From contig OZ210885.1 in the NCBI GenBank assembly GCA_964658305.1, positions 10,726,001-10,790,000 of the forward strand: a stretch of DNA of 64,000 nt. Reading direction: 5' to 3'. A program made the translations under genes and the position numbers. Position 1 is the first letter of the stretch. Each line of letters opens with the position of its first letter. Source of the DNA: Leptogorgia sarmentosa (taxonomy: Eukaryota). Below, piece after piece: positions 13,406-39,235 of the stretch. The notes beneath the pieces are model-generated. The model made no database searches and was not told where the DNA came from. It saw only the letters and a list, made by a program, of their open reading frames with translations.

Positions 13406-16400
13406 TTATCCTAACTACAGCGCGCAACTCAAACTTCATCCGATATACCAGAATATGATTTTTAATTTCTGCACATTCACTGCGGATCAGTATAGATAGT
13501 ATCGTGCAAAATATAACGCGAAACCTGCTCAGCATAAGCAATTTTGTGTGGCATTCTTGATCGGTAATCCCTTCGATTTGTAAGCGCACATTATACGAAC
13601 AGTCTTCCTATATTCTTGTTAGCATATTATAACCCAGCAAAAAATTGAGGAAGCTACAGCCCACTCTGGGCCATGGGCTCTGCTGCGCTTGTAGAAAATA
13701 GTTGCAATTTCTCGTATGATATTTTTAAAGACTTTGTATTCTACTCTACATTGCACAGCCATAGGAAAATATCCGCGAGTACACGCAGTCTGCATTCCGC
13801 AGTAATCGCATTGGCCGAGTCAAGCTAAATATGTTACATTTCGATCGAAATATTTTTAATACAGCAAATATCGTTTTATGTCATAACGTACAATCTTTCC
13901 CGTGTAAAAGTACGAAACCTAAAAGCATAAAGATTTTTGTTCCATAACAATGATCTTCTGTGAATTTAATTGAGAAGAAGAAAGCGTTGTGAACCCATGA
14001 GTAAACTCACTAAAATGCAATCCATCTTGACACTGTAGGTCATTAATTATTATTCAAATTTTCTGATGCCATACAATTTTATTTGTCAAATGGAAACCAC
14101 TTTCTTGCTTAATCATCCTAACATAATGTGAAACAAATTTCATACGCAGATCTTGATCAACGTATTTTTCAAGTTAAATCCTCACTACAATATCACTTGA
14201 GTGGCAAGCTAAAACATTACATCTGGCAAATATCTGTCTCAACGCGTCTTTGCGCACAATAGCTAATCTCAATGGATTTGAAGGTCAAGTATGCTTGATA
14301 TTATTGTAGCTACGATCTTCTCAGTGATGTGAGATAAAGCAAAACAGAAAAACGATGTAATAAATGTTTTGGTGATTGTAATAAATGTAGTGGTGTCCTA
14401 AAGAATGAGGCCGTAGTTGTTATGGAAAATTCGCATTGGGAACATTTCTTTGAAGCCGCGACACATGAAATGAAATAATGATATTTGATACGAATTGTGT
14501 TTATAATGTGCTAGACTGACACAGCGAGCTATCAACCGAAATGTTTTCAATTGCATGAAGCGCATAAAATGTCTTTAAGGCAACATGAATGCTCACTCCA
14601 ATAGCTGCACTTAGGGATGGAAAATAACCACTCATTCAATGTCGTCTCTATCAATCACGTTATTCATTTATAAGTGGAACTGCTAAATCTTCTAGTCCGA
14701 CTCATTTCCTAAGGCTACCTCGACCTCCATAAGTCCATAAAGTTCCGCGTTTATGTATCGCAGCTTTTCAAAGCCTGATTTACGCCTGCGTTGTGGATAT
14801 TATATTAATTTATAAAATTTACTGTCATTTCTCGGTCATTTCTTAGTACACACCCCACTTCGTTAATTCTTGAGATAGTAACTTCGAAGCCAAAAAATAT
14901 ACTAGTGTAGTATGCTACTCAAGTTCAGTGACCTGGTCTAGTAGAAACATTATCTGTATGTATATTAACTATAACTCTGTGTATAGTAAATCTCAGTATG
15001 AGTCTATAAATCAGGATCAAGACCTTTTGGTGATTTCAACGAACAAAGGCAACTGATTCTTGTAGGTGAATCACCAGATATCTCACATCATAACAGTGAG
15101 AATATTTCAGCGCATATTATGAAATTTTACACTAATAATCAGTCATTATAGCGATATGTAAAAATTATGTTAGGTTAACTTTTCAATTTTAAAACCTACA
15201 ATATTGTTGCAAATCATTCTGAGTCATGTCTCGTATTGCATATTTCAATAAATATGAGTAGACCTTGTTTGTGCTTTTTTGCCTTGTCTTATGGTAATGC
15301 AAGCTATAACAATAACATGTGTAGGTAGCATTATACAACACGCTGAAACAGGAAAATATTCAATTCGAATCCATACATTTATCCATCTTAGAATAACTCA
15401 TATTTCTCGTATTGTGTAGCATATTTGAAGATCATTTTGCACCACATTCCAAAGGCATTTGCGAGTGTACACAGTCTGCATTCCACAATAATCGCGTTGG
15501 CTAATTGACACTAGAAATATTATGTTTCTTACCTTTATTTCAGTATGTCTATCGCAACATTTTGAATAAATCTTTTCTTGTGCTATATCGTACGGACTTT
15601 ACGTTCAAAGTACTAAACATAAAAGTGTAAAGATTTCGGATCCCAAATAGATAATCTTCTTTTAGTTTCAAAACGAAAGTGGAAATAAATCATTAGGCTG
15701 CACGTATGCTAAGAGCAATGCGAGAAAATATTGAAACCTGACACGTTAAAAATACATGGCATGTTGCTTGGGAAACAAATAAAACTTCAATCAAGAGTAT
15801 CGAAAGTTCAATATGGCCTCTTTCTACTACGACTTGTGTTAATTATAGATTGCATTACCAGCGCTCTCACAACGAATTTTCAAAATTCCTTAGCGTAAGC
15901 TTCGGAATTCCTCAGATATTCCCAAAATTCCTTAAATGACTTGTTTGTCCTTGCAACTACCCCCAAAGTACCCTGCAATCCCGTTCTTTTGCCTCTTGTT
16001 TTAAAAACAAGACTCAAATAGTTTCAAAATCGTTAATAAACACAATTTGTGAGGTAACTGAGCTTACTAAAGTATATACAAGATAAAATGGGATTGAATG
16101 AGCGACTCATCATCTCCTGAGCCGGACCGGAAGCGCACATTCGCGCTAATTATCAGAAACTATAATTATGTAAATTGTGTTTCACAGGCATTTTACCACG
16201 GAGATAAAGAATTACTTCATTATTAATTAGTAATTCTTTAGCTCAGGGCATTTTACCAAAGGCTTTTCTCACTGAGCTAAAGAATTACTGGAGAGAGTGG
16301 CTTTTCTCGAAATATTAAAATTCCTTAGAAAATTCCTTAAAAATTGAATTCCTTAAAAAAATCCTTAAAACTTTGCTAAATTCCTATTTCTGAGGAAAAA

Positions 16401-16740
16401 TCCTTAGAAGTGAGAGCACTGTGCATTACACATCGTTTTGCCTGCGTGAGTGCCTGTTATAATTTAGTTGGCGTTACTGTAAAATTATGACCTGAAAAAC
16501 ATTCAAAATTAGTAATAGATACTATATAGTGTCATGGATTAACTTGGAATAAAAATAGTTGTGGAAATCTAGCTATAAAATAGTAAACCAGAATATATCG
16601 CCAATCTCCCAACGCCTCTCGTGAATACCGCTGGGTTACATTAGTGCATGATGGAAATGTTTATTGGTACTGAAGAAGATAACCTTGATTGTCAATGCTT
16701 GAACTCATTAACTCCAATCCATGTACTTTATTATTTTATT
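13406..16740 (+). repeat. Copy A of a local non-coding segmental duplication
   Basis: Colinear, highly similar to 30689-33540; starts ctaactacagcgcgcaact in both. Confidence 0.85.
15859..16421. mobile_element. hAT-type MITE
   Basis: TIRs CAGCGCTCTCAC / GTGAGAGCACTG; 8-bp TSD TGCATTAC (15851-15858, 16422-16429); absent from paralogous copy B near 33230. Confidence 0.85.
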
Positions 16741-17171
16741 CTGAAAACGATGTAAAATGTTTTGGTGATTGTAATAAATGCAGTGGTGCCCAAAAGAATG
16801 AGGCCGTAGTTGTTATGGAAAAATCGCATTGGGAACATTTCTTTGAAGCCGCGACACATATGAAATGAAATAATGATATTTGATACGAATTGTGTTTATA
16901 ATGTGCTTGACTGACACAGCGAGCTAGCAACCGAAATGTTTTCAATTAATGCATGAAGCGCATATAACGTCTTTAAGGCAACATGAATGCTCACTCCAAT
17001 AGCTGCACAGGGATTGAAAATAACCACTCATTCAATGTCGTCTTTATCAATCACGTTATTCATTTATAAGTGGAACTGCTAAATCTTCTAGTCCGACTAA
17101 GTCTACCTCGAGGTCCGTAAGTATAAAGCTCCGCGTTTTTGTATCGCAGCTGATCAAACCCTGATTTACGC
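16741..17171 (+). repeat. Partial third copy of the duplicated segment, interrupted by the Mutator element and resuming at 30143-30688
   Basis: Matches about 14345-14785; the sequence after 30143 continues the match to about 15230. Confidence 0.8.
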
Positions 17172-17597
17172 CGGAATCTGTAAAATCCGGAACATGAAAA
17201 GCCGGAATCTGTAAAACCCGGAACGAGAAAAGCCGGAATCTGTAAAACCCGGAACATGAAAAGCCGGAATCTGTAAAACCCGGAACATGAAAAGCCGGAA
17301 TCTGTAAAACCCGGAACATAAAAAGCCGGAATCTGTAAAACCCGGAACATGAAAAGCCGGAATCTGTAAAACCCGGAACATAAAAAGCCGGAATCTGTAA
17401 AACCCGGAACATAAAAAGCCGGAATCTGTAAAACCCGGAACATAAAAAGCCGGAATCTGTAAAACCCGGAACATAAAAAGCCGGAATCTGTAAAACCCGG
17501 AACATGAAAAGCCGGAATCTGTAAAACCCGGAACATAAAAAGCCGGAATCTGTAAAACCCGGAACATGAAAAGCCGGAATCTGTAAAACCCGGAACG
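17172..17597 (-). repeat. Left subterminal 31-bp tandem array (about 13-14 units)
   Basis: Unit CCGGAATCTGTAAAACCCGGAACAT(A/G)AAAAG. Confidence 0.95.
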
Positions 17598-18819
17598 AGG
17601 TTTTACGGCAAAATGAGCATGTTTACTGTAACACAGTCTCTCATGTAAAAATAATGTAAAATGCACTTTTGACTAAACTTGTTATGCCACAACCTACCAC
17701 GCAGATACAGAGAGATGAAAAGAATGAAACGTTTTCGCAACGTTCGCAACGAAACCAAGACAAGCACTTTTCTTTCTTTTATGTACGAGTGCACTACAGC
17801 TAAGACTTCTCATTTATCCGGATTTCGTGCTCTATGATATTTTATACACTGCAATAAAAATCTGTCATACTTGCCGGAGGAGCCATAGACCTTTGATTTA
17901 GGTACAAACGATAATACTATGAATCATATATGACCCTAACATATACTCACATAGTCAGAGAGACAGGAGAGAAAGGAAAACGCAGCGTAATAAGGTAGTA
18001 CTTTCAAACCTACGCAAAGAATAAACTGGCATGAATCAACCAATCAGTCGAACCCTTAAATCGCATCGACAAAGACCAGGCCAAAGGGAGACAGTCCCTA
18101 GCAGAGCCAAAAACGAGGGCAAGCCTTTAGACGGCTATGCGCGTGTCAAGGTTGTGCGCGCGTAAGCTCTAATCGGTTTTATTGCTTGTCGAGAATTATA
18201 AATTCAACCTTGTTTTTGTTTGTTCTGAACACTATATGCGCACGGCAATTTATACTTTGTTATGTTATATAACGAACGAAAAATTCTGCCTAGTGGAAAA
18301 TGGCGTGGATATATTTATTTAAAGTAAACTATTTGCTTGCGAATAGGAATTTTAACCATGCCGTCGTGTAGGTATTGTAGATATTGTAGATAAGAGAATG
18401 GCTCCAGGTGAAGGCGTGGAGGAAACTTGTACTCCAAAGATAAAAATCTTGCTGTAGGTAAATAATTCATGGCAAGATGGAGTTCAGGTTGTGATGGTTA
18501 TCCTTGCTAGCTGCTCTTGTTCGTATATCAATAATTGTCATTCGATATTTTTTGAGTTTTTTTTATGAAAACTTTGAGGAACACGTTGTTAAAGGAATGG
18601 AGTTAAGTTATTCTGATTAGTTAAACAGTTTTTGAACATGCGGCAGTTAGAAATTTTGTGTCGACTCTTAGCTTCGACAGACTGGCTAATAAATTGTGAC
18701 TTGCAACTTAGGTGTCGTATGACATATTACACTTAGTGATATCACAACGAAACGCGTGCTTTATAAAGCATCTTTAATGACACATCCGATCTTTGCTTTG
18801 CTGCATTCTTGGGGACAAG

Positions 18820-19603
18820 ATGTCTTTCAAATTCCCTTGCTTTAATTCTAAAGCAAAGAATTCTTATCCAGAGTTTACGAAAGGTCTTGAAACATTTTCG
18901 TGGAAAGACCTCTCAAACACAAGTGAAATTGGGAGGGGATCATTTGGAGTGGTTTTACTCGCTTCGTTTAACACTAGCGCTACCTCGAAAGCAGAAAAGG
19001 TCGTTGTCAAGAAGCTATTGCCGTCGAGTAGATTCGACGAGAAACAGCGTTTCTTCAAGGAAGCCAGGTTGTTACACAGTCTCGACCACAAGAATGTCAC
19101 GAAATTTAGAAAAGTGTGCCTGGAACCACCAGCAATGATGATGGAGTATGTTTCCTTTGATTTTACACCATTTTGTCCGGACGGACAAAAGGTAAGCAAC
19201 CTGCAAGATTTTCTGGGCTACTTGGACGAGAGTGATGCTGTTGGTGAATTCCCTCCGGCCCTGTACCGAAAAGTTGTCAGTGATGTCGCAATGGAATTGA
19301 AGTACTTGCATGAGACAAACGTGTACCACAGAGATTTAAAAACTTCAAATATCTTGGTTAGTAACATCCATTACTGCGACCTCAATAAAGAGGATCTTTT
19401 GGAAGCTTTTAACCTCAATCCTATCGTATGTAAGTTAACTGACTTTGGCGAAGGCAGATCATTGGGCATACAAACGCAATTATTGGCCAATACTAAGACC
19501 ACTAATGTCGACCGAGGCACCCCATCCTTCATGGCTCCAGAAATTCATACGCTGCGAGAAGTCGGAGCAGAAGACTTAAAACGGATAGATATGTGGGCGT
19601 ACG
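18820..19603 (+). CDS. Ser/Thr (TKL-like) protein kinase domain, exon 1 of the transposon gene
   Basis: GRGSFG, VVVKKL, KEARLL, HRDLKTSN, DFG, GTPSFMAPE, DMWAYG; donor GTAAG at 19604. Confidence 0.92.
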
Positions 19604-19844
19604 GTAAGATACGAAACTATATTTTAATACTAAACTCATCAACGAACACTAAAGGATGATTTTCATTCAGCGAATTGAGCGGAAAAATATCGCATGATCG
19701 ACTTTCCTGCTCGCTATCTATTGAATTGCAATGATTACATGCAGATCAGTGGATTGTCATTACAAAAGAAAAACAGTGTAAAACGTCGATCGCGTGACTT
19801 AAAACACCTGTTAGCCTCAGAATAACATGATATGTCTATGTTAC

Positions 19845-20180
19845 TGTTAAACCTGATTTAGATGCTGTTTGATCGCTTTTGCCCCGGATTAAATGAAGCG
19901 TAAAATGATTTTGAGGTATTGAAATGAGGCTAGTTTATGATTTGACGAAAATGTTTAATTCCTGATTGCTTACGATTTTGTTCTGCTGAAACATGAAACA
20001 GTTAAAATGTTGTAAAATATATCTATTTTATTGAGCAGTACCAGAAATGTTTTAGCTTTGGTAGTTTGGTTGATTCGTTTCATAAAATGACTCATTTCAA
20101 TACCTCAAAATCATCCTATGATTCATCGAATCCAGGGTAAGCGAGATCATATAAACAAATTAAAACAACCCTAACAGTAT
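19845..20180. mobile_element. Degenerate palindromic MITE in intron 1 of the transposon gene
   Basis: atgattttgaggtattgaaatgag / ctcatttcaatacctcaaaatcat inverted arms with weaker outer pairing. Confidence 0.55.
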
Positions 20181-20482
20181 CAATAATCAAAGCTCCAGTG
20201 ATCACAGTAGGAAGTTTTCATAGGTAAACTACTAGCAAGCTGGAAGCGAGTGCCTTCAAATATAGTAATTAGATGAAATTTCTAGTCCCAGCAAGCTTGC
20301 GGGTTGGTTTTTGCATGCGAATGACTGATGAGTGGAAAAAGCATTCAGATATTGCATCATTTCCCTCGAACATTTCAAATCCTTCAAATTCTATGTAAAA
20401 TCCCTACAGTTATCAAAGAAACTTCCTTTCAATCAGCTATAACTGGGTGACCATCAGCAGTAATTTCTTCTATATTTTATAG

Positions 20483-21470
20483 GCATGGTTATTTACTGCA
20501 TTTTAAATCCGAATGCCAAATTTCCTTTTTATATCGATGCTAAACATGCACGCGAGGAATGGTCCGGTCCCGGGCAATTTCAGATTTTGAAATTTGTTGA
20601 AGACAAGCTTATCAACAAGCATAAGCCAACGCATTCTACTAAGTATGCCAACTTCCGTGAAGATGAAGAGCTGCAAAATTTAACTGGACTATAGGAACGA
20701 TGTACAGCATCTGATTCCACAAAACGGCTAACTGCAACAGAGGTCGTGAATTTACTAGCTAGCAATGACCATCTCGACATTATTCCATTGGCAATTAGCC
20801 AAAACTCTGCACTGGAGAGGTACGACATGCAGGTTGCAGCGAATGAGGCTGAAGAGATCGATCCACTTTTGGAAAACGCCATAAATGCTTGCTCATTTAT
20901 AGCTGTGGTTCTGGGTGATCTCATTTTATCTCCGTCCGAGAGCTCATCTGCAGAAACATCCCAAACTGATTTCAAGGCAAAGGTCATATCGTACGCTGAA
21001 CGATCATTAACCGACTACCCTCGTTACTTCAACCAATACAGGAACACTGAACAGCTTTACGACGCGCAAGAAGCGTACACGATTTTAAGACAAGCTGGAG
21101 TGATCAACAATGAGTACGAGCTGACAGAAGAAGTGTTGACATCGCATTGTGCCTATTCAGAAGATGGACGGACGATTTTCTTAAGTGCAATGGATAAGCT
21201 TCATCGTGAAATTCAGAGTAACGAGAAAAACGTATCTATCGCTGTCTACACGTTTGGAAAATACGTGATTTTAATTGGATGCGCTAACGGCAGGTTTTTC
21301 CTTGTGGACAGCCATCCGGTAGTCGAAGATGCTCACGGAAACAAAACAGGAGTAGCGTTGTTTACTGACGGGCACCCAATGCAATCTTCTTTCCTTTACG
21401 AATGGCTGATACGCAGGTTTCGCAAGTCTGGAGTGGCAAAAGAAAGTATGCAGTCATTTGCGATACTCAA
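20483..21470 (+). CDS. Exon 2: kinase C-lobe (with premature TAG) followed by a putative papain-fold cysteine peptidase (C76-like)
   Basis: One frame runs through TAG 20692: GMVIYCIL...L*ERCTASDSTKRLTATEV; then NACSFIAV (Cys 20890) and GRFFLVDSHP (21307-21315). Confidence 0.6.
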
Positions 21471-23693
21471 GTAAGTCTTTCTTCGTTTATTTTTTTTGTC
21501 TCCGACCTTAGCTACAGGGACCGCGTCACACTAACTATAGTTAACTTTAACAAATATTCTTATAAAACCGGGGAGTTTATTTTGTATAAAACCATGAGTT
21601 TATTTTGTTAGAAAATGTTATCAAAATAGCTGAAAAACGTTAAACCTTGCAAGGACAACTGTTACACGGTTTTAATGTCGAAACTGTATGGCACCGCAGT
21701 TTTTACAGTGTAATGAAAGGAACTTATATGTAGGGGCAAGGAACTGTGACCCATGCACTTCTTAATTTCAACGTTCTTATTTAATAGACCCACAACTACA
21801 CACTCGTCCTGCACTTCTGCGATTGGGCCACCAGAGGCCACACAAAACTCAGCGTCAGACTCCGCAGGTAATATAAACGCATGGTATCGCGTTATTGGTA
21901 TATCTATAGGTTCATCTCATATATTGTCAATTAGATAAAAAATGAAATTTATTTCAACTATAACATTAAAATTTAGAATTTCCTCTAATTCAAACGGAAA
22001 CAAGTTGTGACAGTGTCAACCATGAAGGGGAGTCGACCACCAACATTCAGGCAAAAGCTAATGACAAGGTATTAACTGTAACAAATTTCTTACCTAGACG
22101 TCAAATGTCGGTTGTAGAGATTCAAATCTTTTTCTCAAATGAATTGATCTAAATGTGAAACTTTATGATGACATAGTTCCATTGTACTGTATTTTATAAA
22201 ACATTGTACTGTGTTTCTATAATTTATGAAGACATCGATGTATAGATTTGGCGAGCAGAAAGCGCATGTAGAGCTGGGGTAGCTTAAGGGTTTGTTAGTA
22301 CATTTACAAAATAATTGCAGTATCTACAGTAGTATATATCCTAGCATTGTGCTTATTCTACTAAAGGCAGAGGCAGTTACGTGTGAAAAGGATATTGTGG
22401 ATGCAGAGAACCAATCTTCAAGGTATATGAAATCAGTAATACGTTTCTATATTTAGAATGTTATATAAGTTTAAAATGTTTAGGGAAGACAATGTCGACA
22501 TACGTGTAATATATTGCATGATTGCAGAGAACTATGACTTTATAAAAGATGAACCCATGAATAGCTAGAGTCTGTTTCGATTGCATGGGTGTTTTTTTTC
22601 ATCTCTCTCAAGCACTTACAGGATATACTTGCGTTTTGAAATTACTACTATTATCTTAATCTTAACTTTCTTGTTAAATAGACCCACAACTACACACTTA
22701 TCAAGTACTTTGCTCATTGATCAACCAGAGGACACAGAAAGCGCAACGCCATACTCTTCAGGTGATATAACAAGTCTTCCATATTAACAAAACATAGCAT
22801 CGTTTTCCTGGGAATCTACGAAATCCCAAAATTCCAGAGATTTTTTTGGAATACTTTAAAAAATGGAATTGATATTTTTTATAGGAACGCCTCGCCCACC
22901 TGCTACCCTTGAAAGTGTGCATAACAAAAGTTCAAACTGTCCGGTTGTGGACTTGACTAGTTTTAGTTCTGACGACGACATTGGTGAAAGAACTGCGGAC
23001 ATTGTCACAGCTGGCGAACACGACAGCAATTCGCAGGTAATTTTCAATTTCAAGGCTAATTAATGACGTAGCTACGACGCGTCATTCACGTAATCATCAC
23101 CATTTGCGTTTTAAATGCTATTTATCACAAATACACGACGCACAAAAAATACCTTATAATAGCAACGGGGATATTATTTTAGCACTGTTGTAAGAAAATT
23201 TCATATTTAAGTATTTCAAATTAGAAGTACTACTATTATTAGTGATAATTGGAACTCTGCTAGCTAGATTTTAACTGATCATGTGATCAGTTTGTAACAT
23301 ATACTTCACCCCACAAGAGTGTAAAAATTTGTTGTGAAAACCAAACGGTGGGAAAGCACAATGAAGCATAAAATATTATTTAATAATCAAATTATTTTTT
23401 TGCACACGAAAATATAGTTTATGCACGGTCTTTGACCGTGGTTTCACCGCGACGTTCGTATATTGAACATTTATTTATAGTTCATTTTCTATATTATATT
23501 AAAGAATAACAACGCAAACGAGTCCCAAAGTGGTTCGAGTAAGGGAGAGCAGTCGGATAAAGACGAGTCTTCCAGGTATGTATAGTATAACTTCTGTAAG
23601 TGTATTCGTTTTACAGCTCAGTTTTACCATTCAAAGTGGACATATTCTTTACACGTGCTGAATCATATGACATGTTGAATGTATTGTTGATAG

Positions 23694-24142
23694 TGGTGAA
23701 GAGCTGCCAGTTGAAAGTTACAAACCCGTTGGCGAACCTTACAAGGATGATGCCATGACCCCAGTCTTCGCGTGGAATAAGACAGCGTACACTAGTGAAC
23801 AATTGGTCTTGATACTTTTGGGAACGTACGCCGCAGAAGAAACGTGCATATCTCAACCTATTAACGTTTCCCACAACGTTTCCTTCCTAGTGGATACCAG
23901 ATCTTTTCAGCACGCAGATGACCTAAAGTGTGACGACATGGGTGCCTGGAAGCACAATGGTTCCCCAAAATGTAGTTTCAGAGTGGTTAAAGACTCCAAT
24001 GGAATTAAAAAGATTGTTTCAATGGGTAGAAATTATGACAAGTCAACCCGGCGGCCAAGTGCCAATGATTACGAACTGAGGAGGACGTATTACCAAAATA
24101 CTTCAGATCCTGCTGTCCGCAAGATTGTATGCAAATTATATG
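23694..24142 (+). CDS. Exon 9: CG-1-like DNA-binding domain
   Basis: DDLKCDDMGAWKHNG...LRRTYYQNTSDPAVRKIV, continuing into YVLVQYLF in the next exon; resembles the CAMTA CG-1 motif order. Confidence 0.5.
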
Positions 24143-24483
24143 GTACGTATCTACGTTTATATTCCATGGACTTTAAATTGCAATTATTCTTCTGGGATCA
24201 TGATCGGCCGTACCGCCCTTTGAGTGGCGCTGTACCGAGGGAGAGGCAACCGAGATCAGTCTGCTATAGCAAAGTATTAACCTTAGAATTGGAATCGAGG
24301 CCATTAGGTAAAAATACAATTGAATAATCGGTAAGGTCCAATTGAGAAAACTTCAAATAGTACTGATCTCAAATAGTACTGATTCCTCAGACTCGTGCAA
24401 TTATGATCATCTTTGAAAAAAAATATTCAGTGTTGTAGCTATATTGTTTGATTACTATTATATTATATCACCTTTTACTCCAG

Positions 24484-25571
24484 ATACCTCTGTTCAACAA
24501 CTCCCGTATGTGCTGGTGCAATACCTATTCAAAGGCCCTGAGCACGAGGTAAAACGCAAACCGCATGGGAACGCAAAGAGAAAATCATCATACAAGCGGC
24601 TCTTACCAAGCACAAGGGACAAACTAAAACTTTCAATTACGGACAAAGAGAAGACTGCAAAAGAAGTTCTGGACGAAGTTTATGTTTCTGCTGGTGATGT
24701 CGCAATGGCCCGTTCGCTAAGTGAGCTGCCTAGGGGACCCAACGATATATACAACGCCAGACGTTCCGCACGACAGGAGAACGCCGTTAATATCGAGCCA
24801 AGAAACCGCTCCCGGATTGCAGGAGAATGTGCTCCAACTAGCAATGTAAGGTTAGACAGTGTTTGGACACTTTTAGAACGAGCCAAGAGAGAAGAAGATG
24901 AATCGAAAGATTCAGTGTTTATAAGAGAGTGCTCGATACATCCCGCTCTTTTTGTTGTCCTGGCAAACGACCAACAATTAGATGAACTTGTGCAATTTTG
25001 CACAAACCCCCGGAGTTTCTGCGTGCTTGGAATAGATCCCACGTTTAACATTTTTGATAGGAACATAAGTCTCACTGTAACAACTTACAGAAACCTCAAG
25101 TTAGAAAATAGTAAAACCGGAAAACCTCCAGTGTTCGTGGGGCCGTTACTCATGCATCAGCGAAAGGATTGGCAGACGTTTTCAAAATTTGCGCACTCTT
25201 TGAAAACGGCCAGACCGGATCTCGAAGGAATTCTTGCATGCGGTACGGATGGCGAGAAGGCTTTAATCGATGGTTTCAAGCGAAATCTTCGTTTCGCTCT
25301 GTTTCTGCGTTGTTTCATTCACTTCAAGGACAACGTTAAAAGAGAACTGACTGACAGAGGAATCTCACCGGAGGCCAAAGCCCAATACCTGACTGAGATA
25401 TTCGGTAAACAAGAAGGAACGTCGAAGTACACTGGCCTTGTCGACAGTAACTCGGCTGAGCAATTTGAGAGCAGACTCGAAGGTCTTAAATCTGAATGGG
25501 AAGAAAGAGAAACCGTGTGTGGAAACAAGAGCAAGAAGCAAACGTTTTTCGAGTGGTTTACGAGTGAAAAG
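24484..25571 (+). CDS. Exon 10: MULE (Mutator) transposase catalytic domain
   Basis: GIDPTFN (first Asp), GTDGEKAL (second Asp) and LRCFIH (CxxH) are diagnostic Mutator motifs. Confidence 0.9.
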
Positions 25572-25664
25572 GTACGCCAAGCATTTTGTTAGCCCTAAGG
25601 GGGCTTAAACGGCCTCCCCTACTTTCTAATGAGCGCCTCTTTTTAGATGAGGAAAATTATTATG

Positions 25665-25696
<32 letters not shown>

Positions 25697-26007
25697 CTCG
25701 TTTTACACACATTTTTCTGGCTGGAAAGAAGTAAGCCCCCGTCTCTAATTAGCTCTCTCCCTTTAAAAGGGTCTGACAATGAGCCCCCTCCCGAAGAGGC
25801 GTTTCTTGTCTAGATGGTGTTCTCGACAAACGTTTCCGTCAGTGTAAACGGACAAGTGAGAAGGTTCACACGGAAAACCGCTGCCTCTCAAATTCGGCCA
25901 TTGTATCACAAACGCAATGTGACGCGAATTTTGTCAATACCAATCTTGTCAACCATGCAATCAATTAAAAATAATGTTTTTTTCTCATGATTTTTTTTTT
26001 ACACCAG

Positions 26008-27615
26008 GCTATTGATATGAAATACTCTATGCTCAAGCCCGTTAGAGTTGAGGCCGGATTGGGAGACCCACCACCTGAGTATACGAACAATGATCCTGAG
26101 TCAGCCAACTTTATCATAAAGCACGGCCTTCACTTTAGCGCCAGTAGACCACACGAATTCATCGGAAAAATAAAGAATATCATTAAAACTCAGCAGCGAA
26201 ACGAGGAACGTGCAGTATTTGGAATGGGCCCATATCGAGTGCGCAAAGAATTCACGCACCTTACCGTTGATGACACACAAAGAAGCCGGTTGAATCATGC
26301 CCAGCTCAGTAAGAAGTTGCTTGATTTCAAAAAGGCAGGAATGAATGACATGAAAGAGATCCTCTCCACCCAAGTCGAACCCGGAGAAGTGCCACCAGCG
26401 CGTATTGGTATAACTGCGGAAGAAAGTGGCATAAAATCCATTCCATTGGCGATACTCGAGTCCATGTTTCAACGAGCTTCAAACCTCCTGAGTGTTCCAG
26501 GAAATGTCATTCAAAAACCTGGAGCAGTTGATGGATCGTTTATTGTTGCTGGAACGTGCAACAAAGTACATAGTGTTCAGCCTGGAAAAGGCGGTTCACT
26601 ATCGTGCGATCGCCTTTGTACAAACTTCTCCTCAAAGATATGCGAACACGTTTTGGCCGTAGCTCAAGTGAAAGGCATGTTAAAAGAATTTCTTGCATGG
26701 TTTAAAGGGAGAAAAAAGAGAGTAATGCTGATGGACATGGTGGAACAAGGTGGCCCTAAGAATGCCGGAAAGAAACCATCATCAAGAAAGCGGACGAATT
26801 CCAAACGGAAGCCAATCGAGCAATACGTCGATCTCTTTGATGCAGCGCTGCCTCAACCAGCAGCAGATTCGCCAATGACCACATTTCAGAATGCACCTGA
26901 AATGCAGCCGCCAACTTCATTCGCGTCGATGCCGACTTCACTTGGAAGTCCACGGGTGCCACACTGGTCCGATGGATTGCCTTCACAAATGTCTTCGTGT
27001 CGTTATCCCTCAATGGTGCGATTTCCCTCTATGTCGTCAGCTTCTGGAAGTACCCCGCACATGCCGCCGGTTAATTCACAAATGTCTTCATGTCCTTATC
27101 CTTCAACGGCGCGATTTCCCTCGACGCCATCATCCTCTGGAAGTACCCCGCACATGCCGCCGGTTAACCCACATGCTTCTCCATTTGGGTTTTCTCAACC
27201 ATTTGAATCCCCCGCCACTCCTTATATTAATCAAAGCAGTGGCTTGACAAACCAAGAGAACGGCTTGCCAGCAATTGCTAGCTTTCAGTTGAAGTGGGTG
27301 CAGGGAACCACGGTGAAGAAATGCTACGGATGTGGCGGCGATATCCAAAATCCACCTGTCCAGCGGCCGGATGACCTCATTGTCGTTTGCCGAGATTTCC
27401 GTCAATACAGAGACAGAGTAACGGGACAACTTGCAAAAAGTCCTGCTCCTCAAAATGTACATTTCCACCTTCGACGCCAATGCATTGTGACACGATATCC
27501 GAGGTTTCATTCTGGTCTCCTGGTGATAAGTAGGGAATTTCAAGCATCGCTGCACCAAGATCACAGAAATAGTTTGGTTGAAAATTTTGGATACAACAAC
27601 CTGTATACGGTATAA
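26008..27615 (+). CDS. Exon 11: catalytic Glu, SWIM zinc finger, basic patch, Pro/Ser-rich region, C-terminal CxxC...H...C zinc finger
   Basis: YTNNDPESAN; CDRLCTNFSSKICEH; GKKPSSRKRTNSKRK; KCYGC...HFHLRRQC; stop TAA at 27615. Confidence 0.85.
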   Translation, partial: AIDMKYSMLKPVRVEAGLGDPPPEYTNNDPESANFIIKHGLHFSASRPHEFIGKIKNIIKTQQRNEERAVFGMGPYRVRKEFTHLTVDDTQRSRLNHAQLSKKLLDFKKAGMNDMKEILSTQVEPGEVPPARIGITAEESGIKSIPLAILESMFQRASNLLSVPGNVIQKPGAVDGSFIVAGTCNKVHSVQPGKGGSLSCDRLCTNFSSKICEHVLAVAQVKGMLKEFLAWFKGRKKRVMLMDMVEQGGPKNAGKKPSSRKRTNSKRKPIEQYVDLFDAALPQPAADSPMTTFQNAPEMQPPTSFASMPTSLGSPRVPHWSDGLPSQMSSCRYPSMVRFPSMSSASGSTPHMPPVNSQMSSCPYPSTARFPSTPSSSGSTPHMPPVNPHASPFGFSQPFESPATPYINQSSGLTNQENGLPAIASFQLKWVQGTTVKKCYGCGGDIQNPPVQRPDDLIVVCRDFRQYRDRVTGQLAKSPAPQNVHFHLRRQCIVTRYPRFHSGLLVISREFQASLHQDHRNSLVENFGYNNLYTV

Positions 27616-27666
27616 GGGGTAGACCCAAATGACTGCATTTGCTGGAGTGTAAAATTTAGGCTCCAG

Positions 27667-27872
27667 GGGCCGGTTGTTCGTAGCCCGTTGAGTTTAAACG
27701 GTGGATAAGTCTACCTGAACGTAAATTTTACACACTGAATATGCAGTTGTATACATAGGTGTTCCTTTCAGGTTGAACGATTTTATTTTGATCGTTCAAT
27801 GAACACATAGTCTTGTTTGATATTCTGGACTTATCAGCCGTTTAAGCTAAACGGGCTACGAACAACCGGCCC
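27667..27872. mobile_element. PIF/Harbinger-like MITE nested in the Mutator element
   Basis: TIR GGGCCGGTTGTTCGTAGCCCGTT / AACGGGCTACGAACAACCGGCCC; 3-bp TSD CAG. Confidence 0.8.
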
Positions 27873-29661
27873 CAGTCAAAGTTTATTGTACCTACAGGCG
27901 GGAGCATAACCATTTTCAAATGTAAAGAAAGTACCTACCCCGCTTCGGTTGGAGACACTCACTCAAAAAAGGTTTGTGCCCCGTCACGCGTGCACTTGGA
28001 AAATGCTATCTACGGTATTCCCACCTCTAAAATAGCAATCTACCACCTCTATGGTGCTTCCGGGAAATTATCTGCCCCGTCCCCTTTTGCTCCTACTCTG
28101 TACAAAAATTTTTTTGCATGGTTCCCTATTTCACAACTGTTGGTATGTTCTAAGAGTTTTGTTTTGTTATGTTTAATTGTTTAGTTTACTGTAGATTACC
28201 AATCGTGCCGGTAGAAGACAAGTAATATTTGAACAAACTTTCGGGTATTACAGCCCTAAAATTAAAGATAACATTTTATTCATCAACCACTGTTGAACTA
28301 CGGTTGAATTTTTATATTGGTCATTTTGCCAAAGATGAATACATTTAAATGCTATCCGTCGGTGTTACACTGCGCATATCAATTTATAGCTTTATTCAGC
28401 GGTAAATTTAAGCGTTTCACGGTTCACGATAACTAAATTCATCTATATCGTATAAAAAGACATGACAGAATTTCACTAGTGTGAGTAGTCTCATGAAAGA
28501 TAAATTACAGCCTACATGCATAAGTTATATTGTATAGGCTATCATGACAGCACAGTTCAGACCAAGTTCTTTCGCGGAAAAACATGCAAAGTCATCATGG
28601 ATATTGATTTAAGGGTTCGACTGCGCCCTGCTGTTGATTCATGGCAGTTTATTCTTTGCGTAGGTTTGAAAGTACTACCTTATTACGCTGCGTTTTCCTT
28701 TCTCTCCTCTCTCTCTCAGAAAGCAGATTCCGTTGCACCCCAATATAAGTGATTACAGCGTTCCGCGCGCACAACCTTAACACGCATATAGCTGTCTAAA
28801 GCTTGCGCCCGTTTTAGCTCCTTTATACTTTAATTAATTAATTATTTTCGAACTAATCTTTGAGCAAGTCTGCTAGGGATTGTCTCCCTTTGGCCTGGCC
28901 TTTGTTTCGCTCAACAACAGACAAAATCACAATCACGTTGATTTTACAAAAATTCAACGAAGGTCACAGGTCACGATGACACTAGATACGTTATACCAAC
29001 TGTGGTTATACTTCACTGTATTACAATCGTAAACAGAGGTTCTGCTGCTTGTTCTGTTGATTACTGTACTAACGTGTCTATCTAAAATATACAGGCTATA
29101 TTTATAGTAAGATAACAGAAACGTATATTGCGGATATAATGACCAAGTTCTTTTGCGGCAAAACATGCGAAGTCATCATGGATATTGTTGCGATTTAACT
29201 AAGGGTTCGACTGCGCCTTGCTGTTGATTCATGCCAGTTTATTCTTTGCGTAGGTTTGAAAATACTACCTTATTACGCTGCGTTTTCCTTTCTCTTCTAT
29301 CTCTCTGACTATGTGAGTATATGTTAGAGACTTAGAGTCATATATGATTCATAGTATTATCGTTTGTATGGCTCATCCGGCAAGTCTGACAGATTTTTAT
29401 TGCAGTGTATAAAATATCATAGAGCACGAAAACCGGATAAATTAGAAGTTTTAGCTGTAGTGCACTCGTACATAAATGAAAGAAAATTACTCCTAAGTGC
29501 TTGTCTTGGTTTCGTTGCGAACGTTGCGAAAATGTTTCAATATTTTACCTATCTGTATCTGCATGGTAGATTGCATAACAAGTTTAGTCAAAAGTGCATT
29601 TTACATTATTTTTACATGAGAGACTGTGTTACAGTAAACATGCTCATTTTGCCGTAAAACC

Positions 29662-30075
29662 TCGTTCCGGGTTTTACAGATTCCGGCTTTTCATGTTCCG
29701 GGTTTTACAGATTCCGGCTTTTTATGTTCCGGGTTTTACAGATTCCGGCTTTTTATGTTCCGGGTTTTACAGATTCCGGCTTTTCATGTTCCGGGTTTTA
29801 CAGATTCCGGCTTTTCATGTTCCGGGTTTTACAGATTCCGGCTTTTCATGTTCCGGGTTTTACAGATTCCGGCTTTTTATGTTCCGGGTTTTACAGATTC
29901 CGGCTTTTTATGTTCCGGGTTTTACAGATTCCGGCTTTTTATGTTCCGGGTTTTACAGATTCCGGCTTTTCATGTTCCGGGTTTTACAGATTCCGGCTTT
30001 TCATGTTCCGGGTTTTACAGATTCCGGCTTTTCATGTTCCGGGTTTTACAGATTCCGGCTTTTCTCGTTCCGGGT
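29662..30075 (+). repeat. Right subterminal 31-bp tandem array (about 13 units), inverted relative to the left array
   Basis: Unit TTTT(T/C)ATGTTCCGGGTTTTACAGATTCCGGC. Confidence 0.95.
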
Positions 30076-30688
30076 TTTCCCGTTCCTCGTTCCGTTCCTC
30101 GTTCCGTTCCCCGATTCCCCGTTCCGGGTTTTACAGATAGCCGATTTACGCCTGCGTAGTGCATATATTTATTTATCAAATTTAAAGTAATTTCTCAGTA
30201 ATTTCAATTCATCATTCGAACAAACGTCACTATAAAATAAAATCTAATTTTCTAAAATTTTATACACTCGCGGGTGTCTTAGCACACAGCCCACTTCGTT
30301 CCTTCTTGAGATGGTTACTTCGAAACCGTATAAATATAGCATGCTGCTCAAGTTCAGTGACCTGGTCTGGCAGAAACATTATCTGTATGTACATTTACTA
30401 TAACCCTGTGTATAGTAAATCTATGAATCTATAAATCAGACCTTTCAGTGATTTCCACGAACAAAGGCAACTGATACTTGTAGGTGAACAGCAGATATCT
30501 CACATCATAACAGTGAGAATATTTCAGCGCATATTATGAAATTTCACACTAATAATCAGCCATTATATCAGTGCATTATGTAGGAGCGATATGTAAAAAT
30601 TATGTTAGGTTAACCTTTTCAGTTTAAAACCTACTAGACCTACTATATATTGCTGCAAATACTTACAAATCATTCTGAGTCATGTCTC

Positions 30689-33540
30689 CTAACTACAGCG
30701 CGCAACTTAAACTTCACCTGATATGCCAGAATATGATTTTTAATTTCTGCACATTCACTGCGGATCAGTATAGATAGTATCGTGCAAAATATAACGCGAA
30801 ACCTGCTCAGCATAAGCAATTTTGCGTGCCATTCTTGATCGGTAATCCCATCGATTTGTAAGCGTGGATTATACAGTCTTCCTATATTCTTGTTAGCATA
30901 TTATAACCCAGCCAAAAATTGAGGAAGCTACAGCCCACTCTGAGCCATGGGCTCTGCTGCGCTTGTAGAAAATAGTTCGAGTTTCTCGTATGATATTTTT
31001 AAAGAGTCTGTATTCTACTCTACATTGCAAAGGCATAGGAAAATATCCGCGAGTACACGCAGTCTGCATTCCGCAGTAATCGCATTGGCCGAGTCAAGCT
31101 AGGAATGTTACATTTCGATCGAAATATTTTTAATACAGCAAATATCGTTTTGTGTCATAACGTACAGTCTTTACCGTGTAAAATTTCGAAACATAAAAGC
31201 GTAAAGATTTTTGTTCCATAACAATGATCTTCTATGAATTTAATTGAGATGAAGAACGCGTGGTGAACCCATGAGTAAACACACTAAATTGCAATCCATC
31301 TTGATACTGTAGGTCCTATTCAATTATTATTCACATTTTCTGATGCCCTACAATTTTATTTGTAAAATGGAAACCACTTTCTTGTTTACTCATCCTAACT
31401 TAATGTGAAACAAATTTCATACGCAGATCTTGATCGACGTGTTTTTCAAGTTAAAATCCTCACTACAATATCACTTGAGTGGCAAGCTAAAACATTACAT
31501 CTGTCAAATACGCGTTTTTGCGCACAATAGCTAATCTCAATGGCTTTGAAGGTCAAGTATGCTTGATATTATTGTAGCTACGATCTTTTCAGTGATGTGA
31601 GATGAAGCAAAACAGAAAAACGATGTAATAAATGTTTTGGCGATTGTAATAAATGTAGTGGTGTCCAAAAGAATGAAGCCGTAGTTGTTATGGAAAATTC
31701 GCATTGGGAACATTTCTTTGAAGCCGCGACACATATGAAAGGAAATAATGATATTTGATACGAATTGTGTTCATAATGTGCTAGACTGACACAGCTAGCT
31801 AGCAACCGAAATGTTTTCAATTGCATGAAGCGCATAAAACGTCTTTAAGGCAACGTGAATGCTCACTCCAATAGCTGCACTTAGGGATGGAAAATAACCA
31901 CTCATTCAATGTCGTCTCTATCAATCACGTTATTCATTTATAAGTGGAACTGCTAAATCTTCTAGTCCGACTAAGCCTACCTCGACGTCCGTAAGTCCAT
32001 AAAGTTCCGCATTTTTGTATGGCAGCTGATTAAACCCTGATTTACGTCTGCGTTGTGCATATTATATAAATTTATCAAATTTAAAGTCATTTCTCAGTGA
32101 TTCCAATTCATCATTCGAACCAACTTACAATTTACACATTAAATACTCTCGCGGGTGTCTTAGCACACAGCCCACTTCGTTCCTTCTTGAGATGGTAACT
32201 TCGAAATAGTAAAAATATAGTATGCTGCTCAAGTTCAGTGACCTGGTCTGGCAGAAACATTATCTGTATGTACATTTACTATAAATCTGTGTATAGTAAA
32301 TCTATGAATCTATAAATCAGGATCAAGACCTTGCGGTGCCGGATTTACACGAACAAAGGCAACTGATACTTGTTGGTGAATCAGCAGATATCTCACATCA
32401 TAACAGTGAGAATATTTCAGCGCATATTATGAAATTTCACACTAATAATCAGTCATTATATCAGTGCATTACATAGGAGCGATATCTAAAAATTATGTTA
32501 GGTTAACCTTTTCAGTTTTAAAACCTAAAATATTTTTGCAAATACTTCCAAATCATTCTGAGTCATGTCTCGTATTGCATATTTCAATAAATATGAGTAG
32601 ACCTTGTCTGTGCTTTTGCCTTGTCTTATGGTTATGCAAGCTATAACAATAACATGTGTAGGTATAGCATTATATAACACACTGAAACGGGAAAATATTC
32701 AATTCGAATCCATACATTTATCCATCTTAAAACAATTCATGTTTCTCGTATTGTATAGCATATTTGAAGATCATTTTGCACCACATTCCAAAGGCATTTG
32801 CGAGTGTACACAGTCTGCATTCCACAATAATCGCGTTGGCTAATTGACACTAGAAATATTATGTTTCTTACCTTTAATTTGAGTATGTCTATCGAAACAT
32901 TTTGAATAAATCTTTTCTTGTGCTATATCGTACGGTCTTTACGTTCAAAGTACTAAACATAAAAGTGTAAAGACTTCGGATCCCAAATAGATAATCTTCT
33001 TTCAGTTTCAAAACGAAAGCGGAAATAAATCATTAGGCTGCACGTATGCCAAGAGCAATGCGAGAAAATATTGAAACCTGACACGTTAAAAATACATGGC
33101 ATGTTGCTTGGGAAACAAATAAAACTTCAATCAAGAGTATCGAAAGGGGGTTAACATACGCAGTTTAATTTCCTTACAGTTGACTATGGCCTCTTTCTAC
33201 TACGTACGACTTGTGTTAATTATAAATTGCATTGGACATCGTTTTGCCTGCCTGTTAAAATTTAATTGGTGTAACTGTAAAATTATGACTTAAAAAACAT
33301 TTAAAATTAGTAATATATACCATATAGTGTCATAGATTAACTCGGAATTAAAATAGGCGCGGGAATGTAGCTATAAAATAGTAAACCAGAATATATCGCC
33401 GATCTCCCAAAGCCTCTCGTGAATACCTCTGGGTTACATTAGTGCATGATGGAAATGTTTATTGGTACTGAAGCAGATAACCTTGATTGTCAATGCTTGA
33501 ACTCATTAACTCCAATCCATGTACTTTATTATTTTACTCT
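30689..33540 (+). repeat. Copy B of the local segmental duplication
   Basis: Matches 13406-16740 except that it lacks the hAT MITE. Confidence 0.85.
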
Positions 33541-36500
33541 GATGTCAGATGATATTACGTACTGACATAAGGGAAAGCGATGCTTATCAAATGACTTACC
33601 CTGTTACCCATTCAATTGAAAATACACCTTGATGATTGATCAGTACTACTTTAACTTTGGACACATTGTAATGCCAGACAATTCATATTTCCCTTGACAA
33701 GCGAAAACCACAGCTGTGTTTTTTCCCATACCAAGACTCGATTTAGTTTCAAAACGAAAGCGGAAATAAATCATTAGGCCGTATACGAAAAATCTTGCTG
33801 ACGTGCTTCTTGTTGCTGCCTTCCCGGAATTTGGATATCAGTCATTCCTTGAGATATGCCGTATAATATGGAAAGGAACATCGAGCCATGGCAAAAGACT
33901 TGAAAGAAAAGCCCAGATTCGAAGTATCATACATTAAATGTCGGTACGGTATTTAAGTTCAAGATCGAATGGCTCTTCTGAGTCAGGTATATGCATTATA
34001 ATAATAATTATGATTTTTTCCTCATTATAATGATTTTTTCCTCAATATTTTTCTGACACAATGGTCAGGGTTAGGATTCTAGGGTTTGGGTTGGGATTAA
34101 GGAAATTCTTAGTATATAGAAAAATGGTTTATATCTAACACTAATATAACTATATCAAGAGTAATACTGAAACGTCGACCAGCAATCTTAGACGATAGTC
34201 CAGCGTGGGCATTACCCGTGTTCTCAATTGAGAAATATTGGGTACTACCCGTTGAGGTCTTTGTTCAACGGCTGTCAGGCAATTCCTGTAGTAGGTACCT
34301 TCAGAGGAGTATGACTGGTGAACAAGACAAGGAGTTACAATTAGTTGTATCACTGAACACATTTGTAACAGACCAGGGCACTTAGGGCATTGTGAAGATA
34401 GGTAGCTACGGATCCATTGGGGTGACAAGGGTCATATGTGATGATTTCATTACTTTAATAAACTGCAACATTTTACATATATCGATGTTAAAATCGGTGA
34501 AACAAAAATCTCAGCGACATTGTTCAACTTGTCAACAACACACGAGGCATAAAAATAGATACGTCAAAAGTTAGAACTAGAATGCATTACGCAATATCAA
34601 TTCAACACGTCTTGATTTACCATTCCGTGGTCATCGTGAAGATGCTAAATACCATCCGGAGGCTGGCAGTTACTCTACGGGGGGGGGGGGGGGGGGGGGG
34701 TGGCAATTTTACAGAATCTCTTAATTTTAGATTTCGGGCTGGGGACAAAGTTTTGGAGAACCATCTGAAAAATTATGGCAAAAATTAGAGTTAATATCTA
34801 AGACTAGCCAAAATAAAACTGTTTTAGGTGCTGTGGTCAAGCGATCAGTGAGCAGATCATTAAAGACATTAAGGCGAGTCCTGGCGCCTCAAAACGAGCA
34901 GCTTTGGCCTTTGCAAAAGGGCTGTCCATGTCAGTGTAGGCTGCTACACTGTATATTACAATACGTAATTAGTCTGACTTCGTATTACCATATCACGGGG
35001 AAAAATATCTCCCAAGCTTTTCAAATACTGCTGCGATCGTATGAACCGTTGTATCCGAGAATAAAGACAATATTACAGCAAATCCGTGAAACATGCACGA
35101 AGACTTGAATGCCATCTTTACCAGAATTTTCGTGTTTGGATTTTGGGAGTTTCATTATTTTTTCTGGCTTATCGTCCGTCCTGAACAGTCATAAGACGCC
35201 GATTCATTCCTGCCTCTGCTTACACATAATTATTTAACAGTTGAACAGCGAACGCAACCAGGAAGAAAATACCGCGATTCTAACAATAAACGTATCAGGA
35301 ATTATATTTATATCTATTACATTCAAATTTGATAAGGATTCCAACAAAAAACGTATTAATAATTGTATCTTTACATCAACACAAACGCAAATTAACTGTA
35401 ATGACTTTATATATACTTCGGCTATATGTCGGTGGATTGAAATTGCTTAATTGCCGTTGCTTTGGGAATCAGCACATAGTTGAACCGCTCGCCACCAACC
35501 AATCGCGGTATCTTGCGCACGATTCAATAAAAAAGTTGCTTTTATTTCTTTTTCAAATTGACTCTAGCTCTGCTCCCTTTCTTATCTCAATGTAGAAATG
35601 TGATCGCTTCACCTGTTGATATTGACTGTCAAACAAGAATACTTGGTCAGACAAATTTGAATTTCAATGTGAATTGAGGCTTGTGAAATGCTAAGGTGAG
35701 TTAAATCAGTGCGTTTCATCTGAAATAAGTAAAACTGTTAAATATAATGGTTTAAGGAGGGTCGCTATGTGCCTGTAATGGATTGCATGCCAATATTGCA
35801 TTTTAGCTGGTAAAGCTGGGACTTGGCAATATCAGTGTTAAACAGTGTTTCGACAAAAAAATTTGTTGTCGCATTCTGGCGCGTATATAAAAAATTGTGT
35901 CTGAATAATTATATAGCAGTTGGAAAACTACTGACTGATTTTGTGTCGTCTTATCATTAGTTCTTTTCACTGTAGTTGCTTGATAGCAATGCATGGTAAT
36001 ACAACATTTTAAAGTAATAAATTCCTCTGTACGTCATGGATTATATGCTCTAATATAATATAGTATATTGCTAGGACTCGCTGAAATATAATCAACCATC
36101 TGTAGGGAAACTGATTGAAAGTGTCATTTTCATTTTAGTTGTCTTTCAAGCCAGGAAATGATAACAACAGACGGAGCAGTTACTTCCAAGTGTCAACATA
36201 TGACTGGTCATTCGATGATGGTCCGTTTGGCGAGATTGTTGGCATAAGTGATGCAAAGGAATGGGTAAAAAATGCAATGAGATCTTGCACCACATTCGTG
36301 AAAAGACCCAGGATGAATCGATTTATCCAAGACACCCTTGTTGGTTTGCCCAAAACTGACCACTGGCAAGGTTGCCTAAAAAGTAGGGTGGTGTGTTCCA
36401 ACTATAATAATTGTTAAAGTTTATTTCAAACAAAACCATTCTTGGCTTTGTGTTCCAACTTCAAACTATGCCTGGTGACAGCTACCTACAATCTTGCTTG

Positions 36501-38749: not shown

Positions 38750-39194
38750 TATTATACATTTAAAATTTATTCTCGTTCCTGATTGGTCAGAAAGCACCGG
38801 CTAATTCTCAGTATTCAGTATTTATTACGTATTTTCCAAAAAAATAATTTATTTTCAATAATTATTTTTTTGGATCGAACTTGCATCCAAAAAAAAATTA
38901 TTGGACTCTCTCTTGCCCAAGCCCTTGCGCTGTCAAAAGCTTGAAGCTAAAAGCGAGCGAAAAAACAAACAAACAAACAAACAATGGCCTGCGGCAGATT
39001 TGCTTCGCTGAATGAAAGTGAACTCTCTTTTAAATGTATAATAAAACAATTATTAGATTCGGCTTTCGCATGATATCAAGAATTATTCAGACCTCGGTCA
39101 ATGTTATCCGCCTCAGCTTCGCTTCGGCAGATAACATTGACCTCGGTCTGAATAATTCTTGATATCATGCTCAGCCTCATCCAATAATTGTTTA
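38750..39194. mobile_element. Non-autonomous repeat with a long terminal palindrome, inserted in the tRNA-Asn flank
   Basis: Palindrome about 39045-39193; the flanks rejoin to match the uninterrupted copy near 38297-38330. Confidence 0.65.
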
Positions 39195-39235
39195 TTATTT
39201 TTGTATTTCTTTTCGGAAGGTTTTCAATGGAGTCG

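Follow-up and report, generated by a model that had tools for sequence, protein, structure and literature searches.

Positions 17172 to 30142 of a 64,000-nucleotide stretch of the Leptogorgia sarmentosa genome (contig OZ210885.1 of assembly GCA_964658305.1, positions 10,726,001 to 10,790,000 of the forward strand; the whole stretch is referred to below as the window) are a Mutator-like element (MULE) of the foldback type, in which a protein kinase, a predicted deubiquitinase of the viral-tegument-like (VTD) class and a MULE transposase share one spliced frame. Judged by the relatives of this element, kinase and VTD behave together as a cassette that transposons carry, common to at least three MULE-type lineages, rather than as a host fragment captured recently. 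The window copy itself is broken and dead. The element is a variant within Mutator: MULEs with proteases, Helitrons with VTDs and kinases encoded separately by transposons are already in print, and here a kinase and a VTD are fused to the transposase.

Gene model and the three enzyme domains

The gene model comprises 11 exons on the + strand (5448 nt, 1815 codons), with every intron bounded by GT and AG and all phases matched; in this respect, the original prediction was correct to the base. Exon 1 (18820 to 19603) encodes kinase subdomains I to IX, and exon 2 (20483 to 21470) encodes the end of the kinase followed by the VTD-like cysteine protease, with C398 at 20890, D537 at 21307 and H539 at 21313. 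Exons 3 to 8 (21788-21867, 21977-22068, 22367-22422, 22682-22761, 22885-23036 and 23505-23575) encode an acidic, low-complexity, Ser/Thr-rich linker of 180 residues, which was partly built by exon duplication (exons 3 and 6 are duplicates with 78% identity). A conserved domain ahead of the transposase core occupies exon 9 (23694 to 24142). The core itself lies in exon 10 (24484 to 25571), with D1102 (25035), D1173 (25248) and CxxH, and continues into exon 11 (26008 to 27615) with E1311 (26098), followed by a SWIM-like finger, a Ser/Pro-rich region, a C-terminal PARP-type-like zinc finger and the stop codon. The claim that these domains lie in one open reading frame (ORF) stands for the spliced frame, which holds kinase, protease and MULE transposase, but not for the window copy, where a TAG interrupts that frame.

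Contigs of three samples from one study (runs X4 to X6) bear on this model. Their RNA nature is not on record, and they were taken as RNA because they contain intron-skipping joints and leave introns uncovered; run X1 covers the introns and has no splice joints. All ten introns were skipped in contigs from the three samples. The joint of intron 1 was found in X4 and X6 and those of introns 2 to 8 in X4, X5 and X6 (with odd letters at intron 2 in X5); these include the junctions across exons 2 to 9 that had been proposed as a check. Introns 9 and 10 were crossed without intron letters by single records of X4 and X5, and one X5 contig of 4125 nt spans exon 2 to exon 11. Together, these results strongly suggest, short of proof because contigs are not molecules, that one mRNA carries the kinase through the transposase. 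Unspliced cover upstream of the ATG extends to at least 18250, and therefore transcription likely begins in or next to the left terminal inverted repeat (TIR). At the exon 2/3 joint of run X5 (window 21470 to 21794), 14 letters replace 6; among them is the start of the exon in reverse complement, which may stem from a template switch or a small genomic rearrangement.

The kinase had been described as having complete catalytic motifs, and the full set was indeed found: Gly loop, beta-3 Lys, alpha-C Glu, HRDxKxxN, DFG and APE, with GRGSFG, VVVKK, HRDLKTSN, DFG and APE in exon 1, which matched Pfam Pkinase at 7.6e-27. The window copy stops in the last subdomain, and the full set is kept in the 13 relatives that have the whole N-lobe. 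The solved kinases nearest to relative P0032 were JAK2, STK33, EGFR, CTR1 and LRRK2, at E values of 1e-15 to 1e-11; therefore, no close relative has been solved.

The middle domain, for which a putative deubiquitinase had been proposed, has, in its structural model, the fold of VTD deubiquitinases and is predicted to act as one. When a model built from 66 aligned sequences (pLDDT, 91.8) was compared with solved structures, all of the top four rows in Foldseek were VTD chains (E, 1.4e-5 to 2.3e-4), and in VIA it aligned first with 8add (Z, 15.0; root mean square deviation [rmsd], 3.3; 187 aligned) and then with M48 (Z, 13.9; rmsd, 3.6; 183 aligned). A weak profile match to 8adb (E, 0.13) aligned both motifs. 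The catalytic residues, Cys398 and Asp537-Ser-His539, agree with the VTD triad, whose hallmark is the order Cys plus Asp-x-His (PMC9741609). Among covering sequences, the Cys was kept in 106 of 107, Asp or Glu in 121 of 124 and the His in 117 of 124, in counts that include some of the sequences from which the profile itself was made. A Pfam scan of the domain in the window exons gave no match, including to Herpes_teg_N, which reached E values of 0.04 to 0.07 in two relatives; a PDB search with the single middle-domain sequence returned 0 matches, and an ESM Atlas query with the domain returned no usable match. An alternative is that the protease is no deubiquitinase and instead releases the transposase (and the kinase) by cleaving a long precursor. 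In the fold ranking, papain-like relatives of YopT do follow the VTDs and M48 (AvrPphB; Z, 10.9), and the 180-residue linker comes after the protease domain. This explanation nevertheless appears improbable, since VTDs and M48 rank first, the Asp-x-His order is that of VTDs, and the linker is not conserved and has no di-glycine motif.

The MULE DDE transposase of the original prediction was borne out by the signature D1102, D1173, C1194xxH1197 and E1311, which is near-invariant among 30 aligned sequences. The fold of the core was modelled on a relative, P0001 (56% identical to the C-terminal half of the model), and not on the window protein. ISCth4 of the IS256/Mutator family (PDB 6xg8) came first in both fold searches with this core (E, 2.6e-3; Z, 10.5/5.3/233), and Hermes reached a Z of 8.6; these are modest scores, and ISCth4 differs in being prokaryotic, about 400 residues long, 9 to 11% identical and devoid of accessory enzymes. 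A transposase profile run against PDB sequences returned nothing meaningful. Pfam MULE or Transposase_mut was matched at E values up to 0.05 in 16 of 27 relatives, and the Pfam cut-off was passed only by P0014 (MULE) and by P0015, P0025 and P0027 (Transposase_mut). The exon 9 domain is likely a DNA-binding domain of the CG-1/WRKY-GCM type; it is conserved in relatives, with a CG-1 match in P0018 at an E value of 0.014, below the cut-off. The SWIM-like finger comprises C1480, C1484, C1492 and H1494, and SWIM was matched in relative P0026 at an E value of 0.0054. The C-terminal finger resembles PARP-1 zinc fingers at Z scores of 5.5 to 6.9, which lie under the tool's trust level, and the match to PARP-1 Zn2 (Z, 6.9; rmsd, 3.3; 87 aligned) is weak. 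Pfam PHD had no match in the window exons scanned or in the 27 relatives.

Relatives carrying the kinase and the VTD

Of the 26 longer proteins recovered by the transposase search, 3 have a kinase and a further 2 have part of the VTD. P0004, a gene model of the jellyfish Sanderia malayensis, has the whole kinase-VTD-transposase order at 36% identity, and a full-length search with it recovered, apart from the query itself, only P0005 and a single relative of the transposase. In a quick tree, the window protein fell in a clade of 9 rows (SH-aLRT, 100) with octocoral and jellyfish models; a kinase or a VTD is present in 6 of these rows, and the other 3 are shorter at the N terminus. Together with the neighbouring genes, the relatives point to a cnidarian host, likely a coral. 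Among 13 metagenome loci, L007 spans kinase through transposase in order and L006 spans VTD through transposase, while the others have no cassette within the available DNA. At one of them, L003, short linker-like coding pieces are repeated upstream of a related transposase (1359 to 3345), echoing the duplicated linker exons of the element; because of these repeated pieces, L003, with no cassette in its 4.6 kb upstream, was not scored as kinase-less.

A search with the VTD gave 259 matches at E values up to 0.001, of which the best 150 were examined. In this unbiased set of 150, the VTD profile was fitted by 149, and a kinase was found in 50 of the 56 with at least 60 residues upstream, with a kinase-end motif visible by eye in 4 of the other 6. 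Ten of the 150 have at least 100 residues downstream; five of these enter MULE parts, and five enter only linker or unrecognised sequence. P0095 is an uninterrupted ORF that joins the cassette to the same transposase type as that of the window, at 26% identity. P0102 and P0149, the latter beginning at the VTD, have a second transposase type with a GCM-like finger, and P0187 and P0200 (up to 2039 amino acids) combine kinase, VTD, RecQ helicase, GCM-like finger and a third transposase type, in a cluster of 190 that includes a member from Porites evermanni. In the lineage of P0183 to P0187 and P0200, an Acropora cervicornis member bears the name "ATP-dependent helicase SGS1." By BLAST, neither the second nor the third core matches the window core significantly, yet D, D and CxxH align, and it is by this pattern that both types are filed as MULE-type; their kinases are 36% (second type) and 24% (third type) identical to the window kinase. 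Academ, which was considered for the RecQ-bearing relatives, was set aside, as the D-D-CxxH-E pattern of MULEs can be aligned with the cores of these relatives. The VTD tree is a quick one with unresolved deep branches, in which exchange and co-descent are not distinguishable.

Since P0095, P0102 and P0200 are uninterrupted ORFs, they give evidence of the fusion that is independent of splice models. They also bear on the possibility that a host kinase gene was captured once, in the manner of Pack-MULEs, and spliced to the transposase by chance. MULEs often take up host fragments, kinases included (PMC8647823), and family members without the kinase had been named at the outset as the mark of such a capture. 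What was found was the same fusion in the jellyfish model P0004, in L007 and in intron-free ORFs, at 26 to 50% core identity and with conserved catalytic residues. A one-off capture is accordingly exceedingly improbable, and a Pack-MULE was rejected because the cassette is in frame and common to several hosts and lineages.

Insertion, termini and decay of the sampled copies

The element is flanked by the direct repeat GATTTACGC at 17163 to 17171 and at 30143 to 30151 (both + strand). The following base matches too (10 bp if 17172 is counted), and a target-site duplication (TSD) of 9 bp cannot be distinguished at this site from one of 10 bp; the range for MULEs is 8 to 10 bp (PMC5225508). The surrounding host DNA is a segmental or tandem duplication (window 13409 to 17170 and 30143 to 33542; about 85 to 93% identity), whose paralogous repeats contain the empty site at 14777 and, with one mismatch, at about 32039. 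In addition, contigs of two of four sequencing runs contain the empty-site joint of 17162 to 30143, with 10 ambiguous letters at the joint. The TSD, the empty paralogous sites and the empty-site joint show that the insertion is genuine. Since the element lies within one copy of the host repeat and the other copies are empty, the insertion is younger than the host duplication of about 92% identity.

Along with the TSD, the TIRs of about 1 kb that had been noted originally were recovered, at lengths of about 0.9 to 1 kb. The segments 17182-18058 and 29200-30078 are 92% identical over 892 columns, and a further match lies inward of them (18110-18184 and 28741-28815; 76 bp). Inside the TIRs are tandem arrays of a 31-bp unit (13.8 and 13.4 copies). 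The left TIR (17172 to 18184, + strand) consists of the array up to 17596 and then unique TIR sequence, and the right TIR (28741 to 30142, - strand) contains the array at 29664 to 30078 and a terminal block ending in GGCTAT on the minus strand; a partial internal duplication is also present there (28560-28716 versus 29141-29306). The left end begins inside the tandem array and lacks the GGCTAT block of the right TIR, and it may have been shortened by a deletion between short matching sequences. With this shortened end and an in-frame TAG at codon 332, the element is not intact, contrary to what had been thought, and the word "giant" also overstated it: at 12,971 bp, much of which consists of introns, TIRs and nested repeats, it is only modestly large, Rehavkus-1_HR being listed at 10,679 bp (PMC6446971).

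The TAG (20692 to 20694, + strand), at the end of the kinase, is the only stop within the 11-exon frame, and it is private to the window copy, because at 20694 each of the four runs has a base other than that of the window. An intron that would remove it was rejected (28 GT-AG candidates of suitable length), as X4 to X6 contigs run through this part unspliced. Among the 40 of 151 table rows examined for sequence differences, 11 listed coding changes are private to the window copy (all four runs differing); eight of these alter the protein, two of them at family-conserved residues. Other versions have lesions of their own: X1 has a stop at codon 334, X4 has an insertion of 1 base at 24113, and X5 has 8 additional bases at the exon 2/3 joint, while X6 has an in-frame loss of 12 bases in exon 3 and, at partial coverage, no listed frame break. 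With four of the five sampled versions broken, the pattern fits neutral decay after recent activity. The stops of the window copy and X1 are independent and two codons apart (window 20692 to 20700); that of X1 lies at a CpG, and the clustering is therefore likely due to chance.

These changes also bear on whether the locus, or its kinase-VTD part, is a host gene whose transposase half is being lost. Spliced contigs are present in three samples, and the X4 and X5 changes keep the kinase-VTD part open and cut off the transposase, as such a domestication would have it. The window and X1 versions, however, stop inside the kinase, the share of protein-altering private changes fits neutral decay, and the insertion is younger than the host duplication, so that we consider domestication very unlikely.

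Elsewhere in the window, 46107 to 46862 contains a diverged TIR remnant with a 16-bp array (43.6 copies) that ends in the GGCTAT terminus of the element at 46862. The terminal motif occurs in the window as two exact matches and one two-mismatch match, versus 0.30 expected. This remnant is the solo end of a foldback element that is older than, and related to, the one described here; within the window, neither a partner end nor coding sequence left over from it was found. A scan of viral contigs for the terminus of the element gave no match. Two inverted repeats resembling miniature inverted-repeat transposable elements (MITEs) are nested in the 12,971-bp element, one in intron 1 (19870 to 20149; arms 80% identical; high summed depth and many loose ends) and one in its 3' region (27666 to 27873; a further copy at 49754 to 49907); summed depths were never taken as copy numbers. 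Likely MITEs with palindromic or inverted-repeat structure lie at 2795-2920, 6036-6172, 39038-39198, 42624-42749, 53212-53805 and 54296-54534. The window further contains two ORFs with a kinase and a Ribonuc_2-5A (KEN) domain, similar to IRE1/RNase L and weakly similar to the kinase of the element (56137 to 57691, +), a TPR ORF made of 126-bp tandem repeats (60301 to 61356, -), an NB-ARC exon (677 to 1096, -) and a 247-codon ORF with no Pfam match (6583 to 7326, -) that may belong to one STAND-type gene with that exon. A 161-codon ORF (62085 to 62570, -) has a putative resemblance to the C-terminal region of a protein from a non-LTR retrotransposon.

Comparison with described systems and proposed function

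Rehavkus transposons carry an Ulp1/C48 domain. Like the window element, Rehavkus and other foldback MULEs have long TIRs with subterminal tandem arrays and one ORF, the largest listed member being about 10 kb; their TSD is of the 9-bp class, against 9 or 10 bp in the window element, and the hosts listed for Rehavkus are arthropods and annelids (PMC6446971; 10.1101/2024.12.02.626372). The window element differs in having no detected PHD finger, in having a kinase and in its protease, which is VTD-like and N-terminal; because its ends are Rehavkus-like but no PHD match was found, it was filed as a foldback MULE and not as Rehavkus. By description, MuDR-6_HM is likewise a cnidarian Mutator element with a domain of the deubiquitinase class, but that domain is OTU and not VTD, and MuDR-1_NV of the Ghost subgroup is a cnidarian Mutator element of 5366 bp with 177-bp TIRs (PMC6446971). 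The VTDs of Helitrons and herpesviruses (PDB 8add, 2j7q and 8adb) share the fold and the Cys plus Asp-x-His triad with the middle domain, and those of Helitrons also lie inside a transposon ORF (PMC9741609). The Helitron is a rolling-circle transposon, whereas the VTD described here lies in a DDE MULE and in its family is nearly always preceded by a kinase. The same source notes in one sentence that there are cnidarian genes in which a VTD is joined to "transposon-associated domains" (PMC9741609). The word "kinase" is absent from the text and three supplements of PMC6446971 and from those of PMC9741609.

Kinases retained by cut-and-paste transposons are known from the ciliate TBE elements, with a 57kD zinc-finger/kinase ORF under demonstrated purifying selection and of unknown function (PMC4724952), and from the fungal IS3EU, which carries an alpha-kinase (PMC12730594). 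In both cases, the kinase is a separate gene in another superfamily and has no deubiquitinase partner; nothing on TBE kinases was found in the parts of PMC3491425 available to us. No description of a kinase-VTD-MULE fusion was found in the literature searched, a search to which Repbase Reports, Dfam and subscription journals were external, and an earlier description in one of these is possible, though less likely than not.

Several findings weigh against the element being a transposon that encodes a working kinase-VTD-transposase fusion. The window exons give no Pfam MULE match, most VTD matches are fragments of uncertain context, and many distant transposase relatives (P0008 to P0027) show no cassette, though introns or contig ends may cut their N termini. 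The evidence for splicing consists of contigs, which are not single molecules, and all three samples that show it come from one study. A frame-breaking change is present in four of five sampled versions, the fifth (X6) being only partly covered, so that none of the copies seen in this species is both complete and open. The middle domain is only 9 to 17% identical to solved VTDs and has YopT-like proteases as its next fold neighbours; its ubiquitin specificity therefore remains a prediction. Activities and substrates are predicted as well, and for action in cis the sole evidence is the fusion together with the Ser/Thr-rich linker.

In working copies, one full-length protein would be made from the spliced frame, and its transposase part would bind the tandem-repeat TIRs and cut and insert the element with a 9- to 10-bp stagger, as other MULE transposases bind TIRs, excise the element and reinsert it (PMC5225508). 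The tethered VTD would take ubiquitin off the transposase and its immediate partners and so spare them degradation, as has been proposed for Helitron VTDs, of which those tested cleave ubiquitin and were suggested to protect transposition proteins (PMC9741609). The kinase would phosphorylate the same protein or complex and thereby tune transposition, both accessory enzymes acting in cis. We consider the chances of this scheme evenly balanced.

The cassette might instead act in trans as a counter-defence, on host silencing, DNA-damage or innate-immune proteins, and be fused to the transposase only for joint production and import. Its retention across transposase lineages whose cores lack significant similarity to the window core is what might be expected of a module aimed at the host, and the nearest solved relatives of the P0032 kinase are on the TK/TKL side (JAK2, CTR1 and LRRK2). 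Moreover, herpesviral VTDs act on host signalling (PMC9741609), and other transposon accessory enzymes have been interpreted as anti-silencing tools (PMC12730594). On the other hand, the host targets are hypothetical, and fusion is unnecessary for action in trans. Counter-defence seems rather unlikely as the explanation, although action in cis and action in trans are not mutually exclusive.

More broadly, and tentatively, at somewhat less than even likelihood, we propose that cnidarian Mutator transposons carry a kinase-VTD cassette, kept or exchanged over at least three deep lineages, that alters how the transposase or host defence proteins are phosphorylated and ubiquitinated, and that these are the first kinase-transposase polyproteins. 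If this is true, the cassette would be a marker that early-branching animals control transposons at a post-translational level too, and the retained accessory enzymes would point to host pressure on the transposon. It would also give the unexplained transposon kinases (such as the TBE 57kD protein) and the transposon VTDs a shared system, and it may account for cnidarian gene models whose names give just a kinase or an SGS1 helicase. In scyphozoan as well as anthozoan hosts, and in more than one transposase lineage, the transposase has remained joined to two enzymes that would write and erase protein marks; this retention makes it a testable idea that animals restrain DNA transposons by ubiquitin-dependent degradation and phospho-signalling.

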